64,000 nt of DNA from NCBI GenBank assembly GCA_030754655.1, contig JASLZX010000003.1, positions 15,449-79,448 on the forward strand. The letters are read 5' to 3'. The notes beneath the pieces were generated by a model. The model did not search any database. It was not told the origin of the DNA and saw only the letters and a list, made by a program, of their open reading frames with translations. How positions within the stretch are numbered: the first letter of the stretch is position 1; every line of letters starts with the position of its first letter. Positions 44,263-51,191 of this stretch are shown here, piece by piece. Source of the DNA: Candidatus Poseidoniia archaeon. Lineage in GTDB: Archaea > Thermoplasmatota > Poseidoniia > MGIII > CG-Epi1. The translations under genes and the position numbers were made by a program.

Positions 44263-44556
44263 ATGTCCGAAGAGGATGGAGAATACCCTGAATTTACCGC
44301 CCCGGCACCCACGGACGAGAGCGACGGCCCCAATGTGGGCGTTATCCTTGCCGCTGTTTCTGGCTTGCTGGTAGTGGTTGGCTTCTACTTCGGGTTCACC
44401 AGCCTGCAAGCAATGGGCGATGGGCTGGTAGCTGCCGACATGGACGCGCAGCAGGGGCAGCTCATGCTGGGCTACCTGCTGATTACGGGCGGCATATTCC
44501 TGGCGGCGCTACTCTCACTGGGCGGCGTTATTCGCGGCTTTTTCTCCAGCGACTAG
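44263..44556 (+). CDS. small two-TM membrane protein
   Basis: Acidic N-terminus then two hydrophobic helices; 97 aa. Confidence 0.4.
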   Translation: MSEEDGEYPEFTAPAPTDESDGPNVGVILAAVSGLLVVVGFYFGFTSLQAMGDGLVAADMDAQQGQLMLGYLLITGGIFLAALLSLGGVIRGFFSSD

Positions 44557-44933
44557 ACCGTTGCGGTCCGTTCGAACTCGATATCCAGCAGGCCGTCGCT
44601 GAGCAGGATTGTATAGCTGAAGGTGGTCGTGCTACCATCAGTGCTGCTTGAATCCAGCTTCAGGGCCAGCGCATAGCCATGCGCCGCGAAACTGTTCTCG
44701 AACTCCCCTGCTGCCGCAGCGAACGCCGCCTCGGCAGTCGCGCCGCCATCCAGCTCGGCGTCTAGTGCCGGCGGCAGGTGTGCGTCGAGCATTGTCAGTA
44801 GCGGTGCCGGGTCGTGCCGCTCACCCTGGTAACGGCCCAGATTGGCCGAGTGGGAAACCGAAATCGAGATGGTGAGCACCGTCAGCGTCATCAGCAGGCC
44901 AGCTATCATCAACATCTGGCCGCGGTTGTTCAT
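44553..44933 (-). CDS. type IV pilin-like protein with canonical archaeal RGQ class-III signal peptide
   Basis: MNNRGQ|MLMIAGLLMTLTVLTISI. Confidence 0.6.
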   Translation of the reverse strand: MNNRGQMLMIAGLLMTLTVLTISISVSHSANLGRYQGERHDPAPLLTMLDAHLPPALDAELDGGATAEAAFAAAAGEFENSFAAHGYALALKLDSSSTDGSTTTFSYTILLSDGLLDIEFERTATV

Positions 44934-45370
44934 GCTGTCCCCCGCGGGCCATACCAGAGGCTCAGCTCAAGCTCCCACAGCTCAGAGCCAACCCAGACCA
45001 GCCGAAAGGCGATGCTAACCGTCCCTTCTGGCGTGCCGCGCTCGACCAGCGTCTCACTACTCCCACCATGCGCCCCCGTCAGGCGATAGCTCGCCGCCAC
45101 CGGCAGTCCGCCGTCCAAGTACGACAGCAGCGCGCTGCTATTATCCTCGCTGAGCCAAGTCGCGAGCGTCGACTCACCTGCGTCAGTCTGCCACTCATCA
45201 AGTACCTGCAACAACTGCATCCCCTGATGGCGCAGATTGTCGTCGCCAACCCGGGTCGCGTCGCTGGCTGGCAAGCTGATAACCGCGACGTTGACCGCCG
45301 AGGTGAAGAGCGTCGCGAGCAGCAGGACCTCCAGCACGTGCATCTGCGCCGCGCGGCCGGGTAACTTCAT
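44930..45370 (-). CDS. pilin-like/minor pilin candidate
   Basis: N-terminal AAQMHVLEVLLLATLFTSAVNVAV hydrophobic helix after a short charged leader; operon position. Confidence 0.45.
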   Translation of the reverse strand: MKLPGRAAQMHVLEVLLLATLFTSAVNVAVISLPASDATRVGDDNLRHQGMQLLQVLDEWQTDAGESTLATWLSEDNSSALLSYLDGGLPVAASYRLTGAHGGSSETLVERGTPEGTVSIAFRLVWVGSELWELELSLWYGPRGTA

Positions 45371-45371
45371 T

Positions 45372-49755: not shown

Positions 49756-49765
49756 CCTTACTCGT

Positions 49766-50221
49766 CTATCCTGCGGTCAGGGTGACCACTTGGGATGTTG
49801 CGTCATACTGCACGACTATATAAGAAGTGCTAGAGTACACTTTCCCCTCTATAGCCGTGGCTGGCGCAAGCGGAAAATCCGCTGTGTATCGACCCCCCAC
49901 AGGAGCCTTGCTGACCACTTTCAGGCCGGTCTCGGTGCCGATTACCGTGTAGAGCACGCCGTGCTCCTCGGTGGCGGCGGGAATATTCAGAGTGGCGTCA
50001 ATTCCGGGATAAGCACGGACCATCGCGAGCAGCTCCTCAACCAGTTGCTGCAGTCGCACGCCCACCTGTTCCACCTCTTCCTGTGCCGTGAAGGTGTGGT
50101 TGCCCTTCAGCACGTCGGCGACCGCCATGGTCACCGCCGACAGCAGCAGTACTGCCAGCAACGAGGTGTAGATGAACCCTATTTCCTGCGCGCCTGACTC
50201 AGCGCAATCCAAACGATACAT
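49766..50221 (-). CDS. pilin-like protein
   Basis: N-terminal QEIGFIYTSLLAVLLLSAVTMAVA hydrophobic helix after a short leader; adjacent to the ATPase. Confidence 0.45.
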   Translation of the reverse strand: MYRLDCAESGAQEIGFIYTSLLAVLLLSAVTMAVADVLKGNHTFTAQEEVEQVGVRLQQLVEELLAMVRAYPGIDATLNIPAATEEHGVLYTVIGTETGLKVVSKAPVGGRYTADFPLAPATAIEGKVYSSTSYIVVQYDATSQVVTLTAG

Positions 50222-51191
50222 GCACCGTCCTCTCCATCAGGCGTAGGTCTAGCGAGGTCGTCTGTGTCAGGTAGACCTCGTCATTCTGCAGGTCACGGCT
50301 GAATCCCCACTGGGACTGGAAGAAGCCGTAGGTTCCATACTGTGCATCGCCATCCACGACGATACGCAGGCTGTAAGCCTCAATACTCCCGGAATCGCTG
50401 CCGCCCTGGTTGCGCAGCGAGAAGTCGAAGTTGGAGGGGCCAGTCATACTGCTCATCTGCGAGCCGCTGTTGTTGTACGAAACTAGGTATATCGACAGCG
50501 CATCCACGTTTCCGCTGCCGCGCACCAGCGGGCGGTCCTCGAAGTAGTACCCGCCACCCGGCTCATGCGACAGTACCGCACCGTTGAACAATCGCATCTG
50601 GAACTGCCCTGCCGTCGAGCGGTACTTGTAGGAGAGGACATCCTGCATGTAGTAGCGGAACTCGCCAATGGCGGTACCGTTGGCGGCAGCAGCGGTACCG
50701 GTCACGCCCGCCACGATGGGCGGCAGCGGTCCCAGCCGGTTGCCGTCGGTGTCACCGCTCCATACCGTCCCGTTGGGATAAGTGATGGTGACCGTCAGCG
50801 TCGCCACGGTTTCGGTCAGGTCCTCGACGCGCAGGATTGTGGCGCCCGCTTCCACGTTACGCGCCGAAAGCTGCGCCCAAGAAACGGTGCTCCAACAGAG
50901 CAGCAGGTCTTCCTGCGCCTTCTTCAGCGTGAAACTACCCGAGCCGAGCGAGACGGTCGAGGTGCGCGAGGCGCCCTCACCCTGCAGCAGCACCTGGTCC
51001 ATGTCAGCGTCCAAGTTGAGCAGGTTGGAGCGCGTCGTCGCATACTGCGCCCACGCCTCGTTGTTCTGGATTTGCGGGATACCCCACGCCAGCATAGTAC
51101 CTACGATGGTGACCATCATTACCATAATCAGGATGGTACCAATAACCTGGCTTACACCATCCTCGTCGCGAGGCAGGAGCTGACGCTTCAC
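50199..51191 (-). CDS. large pilin-like protein (class III signal peptide)
   Basis: MKRQLLPRDEDGVSQVIGTILIMVMMVTIVGTMLAWGI; first gene of the pilus operon. Confidence 0.55.
   Translation of the reverse strand: MKRQLLPRDEDGVSQVIGTILIMVMMVTIVGTMLAWGIPQIQNNEAWAQYATTRSNLLNLDADMDQVLLQGEGASRTSTVSLGSGSFTLKKAQEDLLLCWSTVSWAQLSARNVEAGATILRVEDLTETVATLTVTITYPNGTVWSGDTDGNRLGPLPPIVAGVTGTAAAANGTAIGEFRYYMQDVLSYKYRSTAGQFQMRLFNGAVLSHEPGGGYYFEDRPLVRGSGNVDALSIYLVSYNNSGSQMSSMTGPSNFDFSLRNQGGSDSGSIEAYSLRIVVDGDAQYGTYGFFQSQWGFSRDLQNDEVYLTQTTSLDLRLMERTVHVSFGLR

Follow-up and report, generated by a model that had tools for sequence, protein, structure and literature searches.

The gene cluster at 44553-51191 of the window (the whole stretch of 64,000 nucleotides analysed here) raises two questions: whether it builds a swimming organelle or a pilus, and whether its low GC content marks it as foreign DNA. 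It is partly on genes of this kind that deep-sea Marine Group III archaea have been called 'motile heterotrophs' (Li et al. 2015, PMC4660358). We conclude that the region very likely encodes the assembly core of a type IV pilus other than the archaellum, a pilus of the PilB3-PilA type (euryarchaeal clade 2 or system 2), and was inherited vertically; the assignment to clade 2 follows from the names of the matching Pfam domains and from the best match among PDB structures. Because Marine Group III is uncultured, no filament has been seen on its cells.

Seven co-directional genes encode pilin-like proteins, a secretion ATPase and a split platform

Seven open reading frames (g1 to g7) run in one direction on the minus strand between 44553 and 51191 and encode four pilin-like proteins, one secretion ATPase and two platform proteins. 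The earlier note had described them as co-directional and overlapping, and indeed the successive junctions from g1 to g7 measure -23, +10, -19, -1, +1 and -4 nt. Reading of the minus strand upstream of g1 reveals a candidate archaeal TATA box, TTTTATA (51241..51247), 50 nt from the GTG start of the gene, and a Shine-Dalgarno-like motif, GGTGA, at 51196-51200.

The four pilin-like proteins (g1, g2, g6 and g7) each begin with a short polar N-terminus followed by one hydrophobic stretch, an architecture that fits the class III signals claimed for all four, and g7 carries RGQ-M. A strict class III motif, applied as a simple pattern in place of FlaFind and giving predicted cleavage sites, is matched by g1 and g7 alone; g2, g6 and the PilA-type pilin described below miss it at position -2 or +2. 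The largest of the four, g1 (330 aa; 50199..51191, minus strand), starts with GTG, and its N-terminus runs through RDEDG into VSQVIGTILIMVMMVTIV. Its Pfam matches are DUF7289 (39.8 bits; cut-off 27) and, weakly, Pilin_N, and both the GTG start and the N-terminal motif [DE][GA][VI]SP[VI]IGT are kept in all Marine Group III orthologues. A role as large minor pilin or as tip subunit is probable. The N-terminus of g2 (151 aa; 49766..50221, minus strand) includes ESGAQEIGFIYTSLLAVLLLSAV and carries the protein's single hydrophobic stretch; the match to DUF7266 is weak (20.8 bits, under the cut-off), and DDS[AG]A[SQ]..IGY.YT is common to the N-termini of the Marine Group III orthologues. No Pfam family matched g6 (146 aa; 44930..45370, minus strand), which begins MKLPGRAAQ followed by MHVLEVLLLATLF. 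Its orthologues share a class III-like [TR][KR]GQMHVLEVLL, in which Q is predicted to occupy +1, the window copy having A instead of G. The last gene, g7 (126 aa; 44553..44933, minus strand), begins MNNRGQ followed by MLMIAGLLMTL, and [KRN][GA]Q[LM]L.. is kept throughout the Marine Group III orthologues. A crude motif search combined with Pfam found no class III (prepilin) peptidase among the approximately 38 open reading frames of the window that were scanned; matches to a GxGDxK expression for A24 peptidases were discarded as out-of-frame junk.

The two membrane proteins are separate T2SS-F proteins, as had been proposed, and correspond to opposite halves of FlaJ. The product of g4 (46556..47497, minus strand; T2SSF 44.3 bits) has five hydrophobic segments and aligns with positions 42-242 of 555 in an ArlJ/FlaJ model, making it a homologue of the N-terminal half of FlaJ/TadC. 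The product of g5 (394 aa; 45372..46556, minus strand; T2SSF 54.6 bits) has multiple hydrophobic segments and covers the C-terminal half (298-545 of 555 and 217-459 of 465 in ArlJ/FlaJ models). The split itself is nothing new, having already been described for the pili of euryarchaeal clades 1 and 2 (Makarova 2016, PMC4858521).

The ATPase is of the pilus type and archaellum components are absent

The third gene, g3 (47479..49755, minus strand), encodes a 758-aa PilB3/afGspE-like ATPase of the secretion superfamily, with matches to T2SSE (99.6 bits) and PilB3_C (45.2 bits) that both exceed the Pfam cut-offs. We divide it into an N-terminal extension (residues 1-75; 49531-49755), a core (residues 76-565; 48061-49530) and a C-terminal tail considered below. 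Marine Group III supplies more than 100 clusters of full-length homologues. Among solved structures the best match is Archaeoglobus fulgidus GspE (2OAP) at 427 bits, against 277 bits for FlaI and 130 bits for CpaF, and the 2OAP alignment spans query residues 63-561, reaching within four residues of the end of afGspE. The model of the TadA family scores 143.6 bits, below its cut-off of 373. By these comparisons g3 is a pilus-type ATPase rather than one of the FlaI type.

That the operon instead encodes an archaellum, a swimming organelle, is suggested by existing annotation. JGI calls the homologues of g3 'flagellar protein FlaI' and the pilin a 'flagellin-like protein', Li et al. (PMC4660358) group such genes as flagellar proteins in their 'motile heterotroph' description, and the top NCBIfam match of g3 is the FlaI equivalog model. 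That match, however, reaches 412 bits where the cut-off is 550, and it is the afGspE structure that g3 fits far better than FlaI. Archaellin (PF01917), FlaH and FlaF/G are absent at E ≤ 1 from the seven operon proteins, as they are from the other 30 scanned open reading frames of the window and from the called genes of relatives within 10 kb; FlaC/D/E/X were likewise not found in the operon, the scanned window frames or the flanks of relatives. The earlier note had reached the same view, both on the missing archaellum components and on a pilus as the product. Moreover, the platform is split here and a single FlaJ in archaella. Further evidence against an archaellum is provided by Supplementary Table 11 of Li et al. 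(PMC4660358), which gives FlaB, F, G, H, I and J for Marine Group II bins, but lists only CpaF, TadC, FlaJ and 'flagellin-like' genes for those of Marine Group III. We therefore regard an archaellum as very unlikely, although a rotary or other role is conceivable.

The same table reports transcripts for the ATPase, TadC/FlaJ and a 'flagellin-like protein' in the Marine Group III bin Cayman92, and a scaffold labelled Cayman_92 (our locus L005) encodes an ATPase 95% identical to g3. The Marine Group III genes of that study (a CpaF-type ATPase, FlaJ, TadC and 'flagellin-like' proteins) amount to a type IV pilus set without archaellum-specific parts, and the filament is therefore likely to serve in binding to particles or cells and not in swimming. 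This reading bears on the share of Marine Group III in particle-associated carbon turnover.

A PilA-type pilin is encoded 4 kb from the operon

A further pilin gene lies 4 kb from the operon, beyond the coordinates covered by the earlier note, which missed it. It encodes a PilA-type pilin of 166 aa on the plus strand (39954..40454) that begins MKRRIVNDEQAVSPVIAVILMVAITVVLAAV and matches Pilin_N (DUF1628), a conserved hydrophobic domain, at 40.8 bits (cut-off 25.2). Compared with the PilA of a Marine Group III genome of 35% GC it shows 78% identity, with no difference in the first 51 residues, and identity is 55-97% across the best 120 homologue clusters listed; JGI names these homologues 'flagellin-like protein'. 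PilA is the probable major filament subunit. Always adjoining the pilin gene is that of a 167-aa protein (39364..39867, plus strand) with a Sec-type signal and a C-terminal membrane anchor, possibly an accessory or anchor protein. Also adjoining it is the gene of an ArsR/HTH_20-type transcription factor (38676..39335, plus strand; HTH_20 49.7 bits), a candidate regulator of pilin expression; its counterpart in a low-GC Marine Group III genome is 56% identical and keeps synteny with PilA. The trio of HTH factor, protein of about 170 aa and PilA is kept as a unit in distant relatives (loci L003, L004 and L047). In a low-GC relative, pilA has near it a KaiC/RecA-like gene of 217 aa, which was considered as FlaH and rejected; its sequence looks RadB-like and the window has no such gene.

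PilA also bears on whether these genes build a long filament at all. Filament length and function are not fixed by sequence alone, and weak similarity links the ATPase and platform proteins to the BasE and BasF models of the bindosome (212 and 22 bits), as might be expected of a pilin-based machine without a long filament, either a bindosome-like surface assembly or a pseudopilus for DNA uptake or secretion. Those scores nevertheless fall far under the cut-offs of 1000 and 1300, substrate-binding proteins with class III signals are missing in and near the operon, and the locus is linked to a canonical, extremely conserved shaft pilin of the PilA type. We give such a machine a slim chance and favour a pilus filament.

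The operon is conserved in place across Marine Group III

The earlier note had put the GC content of the locus at 50-55% against about 66% in its flanks and had suggested horizontal acquisition. A dip exists, and the operon is the lowest-GC stretch of its 6.6-kb size in the window, but its magnitude was overstated: GC is 0.590 (59.0%) at 44553-51191 vs 0.649 (64.9%) in the remaining window. Individual genes of the operon range from 0.56 to 0.64, and their GC3 is 0.68-0.78 vs mostly 0.80-0.90 (about 0.83) elsewhere in the window. The dip is genuine but small. Elsewhere in the window, positions 29682-30503 form a far sharper GC trough (0.40-0.48). Rfam and tRNA scans of the window gave a sole match, tRNA-Arg at 31385-31460, and no tRNA gene adjoins the operon.

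The lower GC and GC3 are what an acquired island would show, its composition marking foreign DNA. Conservation of the locus argues otherwise. The order trxB, the seven genes, a small TM open reading frame and pyrG is the same in representatives of 39 Marine Group III species, whose loci vary in GC content from 0.34 to 0.65. Relative to the genome of 35% GC, identity is 77% for the ATPase, 76% for pyrG and 75% for trxB; since these values are alike, the operon has diverged along with its neighbours. In addition, the difference in GC between operon and flanks changes sign with genome GC (r = -0.89, slope 0.81, 35 loci), the operon being slightly GC-richer than its flanks in low-GC relatives and GC-poorer in high-GC ones, which points to compositional damping of constrained genes and not to foreign origin. 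Scanning of neighbour genes gave no integrase or transposase domain, nor is there an adjoining tRNA gene, and the trough at 29682-30503 illustrates how a candidate foreign gene looks in this genome. An acquired island is thus extremely unlikely: recent transfer of the operon is contradicted, and what is conceivable is acquisition by the ancestor of Marine Group III. Jointly with its identity as a clade 2 pilus, it is very likely that the operon was inherited vertically and is ancestral in Marine Group III, all sampled members of which have it. Being universally syntenic, it provides the lineage with a stable marker.

The ATPase carries a Marine Group III-specific C-terminal tail

Beyond its core, g3 extends into a tail (residues 566-758 plus stop; 47479..48060, minus strand) made up of a polybasic linker (QVGGRKRRRK...), helices at about residues 600-749 and the terminal NPRWWHRWF. 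The earlier note had reported some 220 K/A/E/R-rich residues at this end; the extension is present and 48% K/A/E/R, although its length is about 193-197 residues. We considered whether the tail is a separate open reading frame, fused or frameshifted, the finding by which the earlier note would have had its reading of the extension overturned, and rejected this. Thirty-nine Marine Group III species carry the tail at full length in the ATPase frame, its dN/dS is 0.13-0.23 (<0.25), and the nearest relative outside Marine Group III is without an intervening gene. These comparisons indicate that the tail is translated and under purifying selection.

The tail had been said to be absent from typical FlaI and CpaF proteins, and our search for homologues extends this: of 150 top representatives (clustered at 50% identity), none but the cluster from Marine Group III spans the tail. 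A search with the tail only returned nothing beyond fragments of the same ATPase, and Pfam gave no match to it. The tail is kept even in CG-Bathy1. AlphaFold2 modelled the tail alone with a pLDDT of 81.8 and a pTM of 0.67 as four to five long helices. In the full-length model, built from a low-diversity alignment of 30 sequences, the core was poor (mean pLDDT 48) and the tail helices alone were confident; this model was left out of the fold search and the tail re-modelled by itself. The fold search with the predicted tail found no specific match. The prediction for this Marine Group III-specific tail is thus a folded, helical domain rather than disorder, a structure undersold by its earlier description as low-complexity. 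Additions to other members of the ATPase family, such as zinc ribbons, helix-hairpin-helix repeats and acidic tails, are unrelated to it in sequence. Appended domains are already known as common in this family, and the tail is a clean, lineage-restricted case.

The last codons of the tail also contain coupling signals for the next gene (47485..47499, minus strand): a GGTGG at 47494-47498, five nucleotides and a GTG at 47488. The GGTGG, a Shine-Dalgarno sequence, is formed by the WW codons of g3 and the GTG is built from its last Trp codon. This GGTGG-N5-[AG]TG layout is found in 18/21 distinct Marine Group III sequences. At one locus (L030) g4 starts further downstream and the ATPase ends in WWHSFF. 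The comparison suggests that GTG 47488 is the likely start of g4, whose product would more likely have 310 aa than the 313 aa counted from GTG 47497. Invariance of the final tail residues is confounded, because the start signals of g4 overlap them.

A model for pilus assembly

We suggest that a prepilin peptidase encoded elsewhere trims the class III signal peptides of PilA, g1, g2, g6 and g7. The FlaJ/TadC halves encoded by g4 and g5 make up, as their homology shows, the membrane platform, on which a g3 hexamer would dock, as its family membership implies, with ATP driving pilins from the membrane into the filament. The highly conserved PilA would build the shaft and the four less conserved operon pilins may form a priming or tip complex, in which g1, at 330 aa, is the likeliest adhesive or tip subunit. 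The sequence shows g3 and g4 to be translationally coupled, the Shine-Dalgarno sequence and start of g4 falling within the terminal Trp codons of g3. The modest GC dip reflects constraint on membrane and conserved proteins rather than foreign origin.

For the tail, whose fold is predicted and whose function is a guess, we propose that it tethers or scaffolds the motor, holding or regulating the g3 hexamer at the membrane or platform. That the polybasic linker, the helical-hairpin domain of about 150 aa and the WWHxW end form a built-in tether, or a regulatory or stator-like scaffold, is a speculative and rather doubtful proposal. If true, the tail could stand in for the separate accessory proteins of other archaeal filament machines (coiled-coil partners, MinD-like ATPases or FlaH/FlaX-like proteins), giving a streamlined planktonic archaeon a pilus motor that is minimal and self-contained.

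Comparison with known systems

The operon shares with the archaellum an ATPase and platform of the same superfamily and subunits with class III signal peptides, but differs in the lack of archaellin, FlaF/G, FlaH and FlaX/CDE, in its split platform and in an ATPase that falls under the FlaI cut-off. The Epd pilus of Methanococcus maripaludis (clade 1/system 1) and bacterial Tad/Flp pili resemble it in having two platform genes with one T2SSF domain each, several minor pilins in the operon and, as in two of the pilins here, Gln just after the predicted cleavage site. The shaft pilin, however, is PilA-type with a globular domain and not short and Flp- or EpdE-like, and the locus is without a secretin, TadZ, RcpA or a dedicated peptidase gene of the EppA type. 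With bacterial Tad/Flp the two-platform layout alone is shared, Flp and secretin domains being absent from the seven proteins. The earlier note had seen a Tad/FlaI-FlaJ-like operon with a TadB/TadC-like split; the split is borne out, but the ATPase is much nearer to afGspE than to CpaF (427 vs 130 bits). In comparison with afGspE (PDB 2OAP/2OAQ), the best structure match of g3, the A. fulgidus protein stops where the Marine Group III tail starts, and is without both the 193-aa tail and the N-terminal basic helix.

Traits are also shared with the PilB3-PilC3/PilA1-6 adhesion pilus of Haloferax volcanii and with clade 2. These include a PilB3_C domain and extended ATPase termini, platform genes of the TadC/FlaJ type adjoining the ATPase, a Pilin_N major pilin of the PilA type encoded away from the ATPase operon, a putative minor pilin in the 250-550-aa range (arCOG02911 in clade 2) together with several small pilin-like proteins, and, nearby, a large adhesin-like protein with an anchored accessory one. 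Clade 2 has been described with two tadC genes in many loci, PilA pilins in trans and a minor pilin of 250-550 aa (Makarova 2016, PMC4858521), while a 2026 preprint (bioRxiv 10.64898/2026.04.22.720090) gives a single platform gene for system 2. Because the locus described here has two, it combines traits of systems 1 and 2 of that preprint. It differs from Haloferax in its host, a planktonic Poseidoniia archaeon and not a haloarchaeon, and from other clade 2 members in the helical C-terminal tail of its ATPase. Overall these comparisons indicate that the operon is an ordinary type IV pilus assembly set, the one unusual feature of which is the lineage-specific tail of its ATPase.

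An operon for a putative type IV pilus with a split platform

Seven closely packed genes lie on the minus strand at 44553-51191, numbered here g1 to g7 from 51191 downward, with successive junctions of -23, +10, -19, -1, +1 and -4 nt. The first product, g1 (330 aa), matches the Pfam family DUF7289 above cut-off and archaeal Pilin_N weakly; g2 (151 aa) has a weak DUF7266 match, g3 (758 aa) combines a T2SSE ATPase core with a PilB3_C domain, g4 (313 aa, or 310 aa from GTG 47488) and g5 (394 aa) each have a single T2SSF domain, and g6 (146 aa) and g7 (126 aa) are without a Pfam family match. 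A TTTTATA box read from the sequence (51241-51247) and a GGTGA motif precede g1, whose GTG start is conserved. Because g4 and g5 align to separate parts of the 555-position NCBIfam ArlJ/FlaJ model (42-242 and 298-545, respectively), they represent a FlaJ/TadC platform split into two halves, as the earlier note had proposed. Two separate T2SSF genes are likewise found in L046, a relative outside Marine Group III. Convergent to the operon, and overlapping the g7 stop by 4 nt, is an ORF for a 97-aa protein with two transmembrane segments (44263-44556, plus strand). It is 91-98% identical in close relatives and syntenic between g7 and pyrG in most low-GC Marine Group III relatives (26-43% identity).

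Signals for g4 are embedded in the end of g3. The last g3 codons, TGG TGG CAY NNR TGG, contain GGTGG followed after 5 nt by the [AG]TG that starts g4, an arrangement shared by 18 of 21 distinct sequences from Marine Group III; in the window, the start is the GTG that gives the 310-aa protein. At locus L030 the g4 start is shifted downstream and the final Trp of the ATPase is Phe. By these embedded signals g3 and g4 are translationally coupled, and the striking invariance of the terminal motif of the ATPase is partly confounded by this overlap.

A lineage-specific C-terminal tail on the ATPase

Homology of g3 to A. fulgidus GspE (afGspE) and PilB3_C stops at about residue 561-565. The remaining tail (residues 566-758) has a K/A/E/R content of 48% and carries a net charge of +14, and it is conserved in frame across all Marine Group III lineages, CG-Bathy1 included. 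Conserved motifs within it are QVGG[KR]KRRRK, DLDLS, VDxxDFP, QAxYxPLxQL, VSSL and the end LAxRVxRSANPRWWHxW[LF]. The dN/dS of the tail is 0.13-0.23, versus 0.04-0.08 for the core (residues 76-565). Coverage of the tail among the best 150 representatives at 50% identity is limited to the Marine Group III cluster, and the others stop at about 565; a tail-only search of 5.8 billion proteins returned nothing but fragments of the same protein, and the tail has no match in Pfam. AlphaFold2 on the tail alone (pLDDT 81.8, pTM 0.67) predicted a disordered basic linker followed by four to five long helices at about residues 600-749, and the full-length run of g3 agrees for this part. Searches with the predicted fold found generic helical hairpins only and no specific match. 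Since the tail is conserved in frame, has a low dN/dS, is confined to Marine Group III and is predicted to be helical, it is a real, selected, lineage-specific domain. The extension described in the earlier note therefore stands, though as more than low-complexity sequence. Our guess is that it serves as a tether or scaffold.

The ATPases of relatives carry unrelated appendages, including zinc ribbons, helix-hairpin-helix repeats and acidic tails. The nearest homologues outside Marine Group III (P0121, P0122, P0125, P0126 and P0128; 50-64% identity) each have a different appended region, among them a zinc ribbon at the N-terminus with an E/K-rich spacer, zinc ribbons at the C-terminus, helix-hairpin-helix repeats and long acidic tails. 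Judging from these sequences, appended terminal regions seem to recur in this ATPase family.

Distribution and the question of horizontal origin

Full-length ATPase homologues with 77-100% identity form more than 100 clusters and, where named, are labelled Marine Group III euryarchaeote, Poseidoniia or similar. In a survey of one genome per GTDB species we recovered 39 Marine Group III loci, and all seven genes lie between trxB and pyrG wherever the contig extends far enough. The earlier note had described a locus of 50-55% GC against flanks of about 66% and suggested horizontal acquisition. The operon region is indeed the lowest 6.6-kb stretch of the window, but the dip is far smaller (0.590 versus 0.649 in the rest of the window), with GC3 of 0.68-0.78 versus mostly 0.80-0.90 elsewhere. 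Across 35 loci, operon GC exceeds flank GC by 1-2 points in low-GC genomes and falls 2-7 points below it in high-GC genomes; the offset correlates with genome GC at r = -0.89, and operon GC regressed on flank GC has a slope of 0.81. Divergence also tracks the neighbours: identities to a Marine Group III genome of 35% GC are 77% for the ATPase, 76% for pyrG and 75% for trxB, and the remaining operon proteins (40-63%) are within the same range as other neighbours (35-65%). With divergence like that of the neighbours, a damped GC offset and a constant position, horizontal acquisition is unsupported. The modest dip is better read as compositional damping of constrained, membrane-rich genes, and the operon as a conserved and probably vertically inherited feature of Marine Group III archaea.

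Elsewhere in the window, a gene for a 273-aa SAM-dependent methyltransferase (29682-30503, minus strand; Methyltransf_11, 72.6 bits) sits in a sharp trough of 0.40-0.48 GC between sides of 0.65-0.70; as a candidate for recent horizontal acquisition it is much stronger than the pilus operon. Marine Group III genomes (loci L001 and L009-L043 compared with the window) span 34-65% GC, yet their ATPase, pyrG and trxB keep 75-79% amino-acid identity and local gene order is identical; composition has thus changed greatly inside a single order while rearrangement was slight. In high- and low-GC genomes alike, the pilus region is flanked by a conserved cluster encoding small membrane proteins (one of them DUF7318), cytochrome b and Fe-S/CCG proteins (window 56524-60254 and 61135-61983; L001 1-4465; L047 10288-15676); the cluster resembles a respiratory module.

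Pilin-like proteins and a linked PilA module

The products of g1, g2, g6 and g7 each have a short polar N-terminus followed by one hydrophobic stretch of about 20 residues. Of the four, g1 (DG|VS) and g7 (RG|QM) fit the pattern of class III signal peptides, and g2 and g6 are each off by one position. Among the orthologues at 17 diverse loci of Marine Group III, the N-terminus is the best-conserved part of each protein, with the motifs [DE][GA][VI]SP[VI]IGT in g1, DDS[AG]A[SQ]..IGY.YT in g2, [TR][KR]GQMHVLEVLL in g6 and [KRN][GA]Q[LM]LL in g7. Architecture and conservation thus agree with the earlier prediction of four proteins with class III-type N-termini, although the strict pattern holds for g1 and g7 only, and support reading all four as putative pilins with predicted class III cleavage. 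The window ORFs scanned yielded no gene for a prepilin peptidase.

A canonical PilA-type pilin gene, outside the region considered in the earlier note, is located at 39954-40454 (plus strand); its product begins MKRRIVNDEQAVSPVIAVILMVAITVVLAAV and scores 40.8 bits against Pilin_N, above the cut-off. Upstream are genes for a protein of 167 aa that has a Sec signal sequence and is anchored in the membrane at its C-terminus (39364-39867), and for an ArsR-type HTH regulator (38676-39335). This trio is kept together in the 35%-GC genome, about 13-15 kb from the operon, with identities of 56% (HTH), 40% (small protein) and 78% (PilA), and the first 51 residues of PilA are identical. Such conservation is far above that of the operon pilins (40-51% identical to the same relative), which fits PilA as the shaft subunit and the operon pilins as faster-evolving minor or tip pilins. 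The position of the trio relative to the cytochrome b/Fe-S cluster differs between lineages.

Two large surface proteins are also encoded in the window. The gene at 34634-38617 (plus strand), just upstream of the trio, codes for a secreted protein of 1327 aa that has a CARDB domain, is anchored at its C-terminus and is rich in Asn, Thr, Tyr and N-x-T sequons; GC drops to 0.48-0.50 within the gene (35-37 kb). The protein may be a large adhesin-like protein of the kind often near such pilus loci; it has the same position in close relatives L003 and L004, and none turned up in the distant relative L047 within 8 kb of pilA. The second (13409-17962, minus strand; 1517 aa) has PKD and Ig-like domains and a membrane segment followed by an acidic coiled-coil-like C-terminal region, and its gene has GC lowered to 0.60.

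Probably a pilus rather than an archaellum

Archaellin, FlaH and FlaF/G gave no match at E<=1 in any of the seven operon proteins, and none was found among 30 other window ORFs scanned or among called genes within 10 kb in relatives. The g3 ATPase scores 412 bits against the NCBIfam FlaI equivalog, below the cut-off of 550, and among solved structures is nearest to afGspE (2OAP, 427 bits), followed by S. acidocaldarius FlaI (277) and CpaF (130). The locus is thus most consistent with a type IV pilus operon and not an archaellum, and here the earlier note was right.

The 'flagellar proteins' listed for Marine Group III bin Cayman92 (65.4% GC) comprise a CpaF-type ATPase, FlaJ, two TadC genes and an 'archaeal flagellin-like protein', and transcripts are reported for all of them; for Marine Group II bins the table gives FlaB, F, G, H, I and J (Li et al. 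2015, PMC4660358). The ATPase of L005, a scaffold labelled Cayman_92, is 95% identical to g3. From that table and this identity, the Marine Group III pilus genes were already known and transcribed, but interpreted as flagella. The interest of the locus lies in the lineage-specific ATPase tail and in correcting the 'flagella / motile' label.

The layout agrees with euryarchaeal clade 2 systems, which have a PilB3-type ATPase, often two tadC-like genes, a 250-550-aa minor pilin and PilA pilins possibly encoded elsewhere (Makarova et al. 2016, PMC4858521). A 2026 preprint describes 'system 2' ATPases as extended at the N-terminus and sometimes at the C-terminus, with loci that often include large adhesins. 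Because the preprint places split platforms in 'system 1', the window locus combines traits of both systems.
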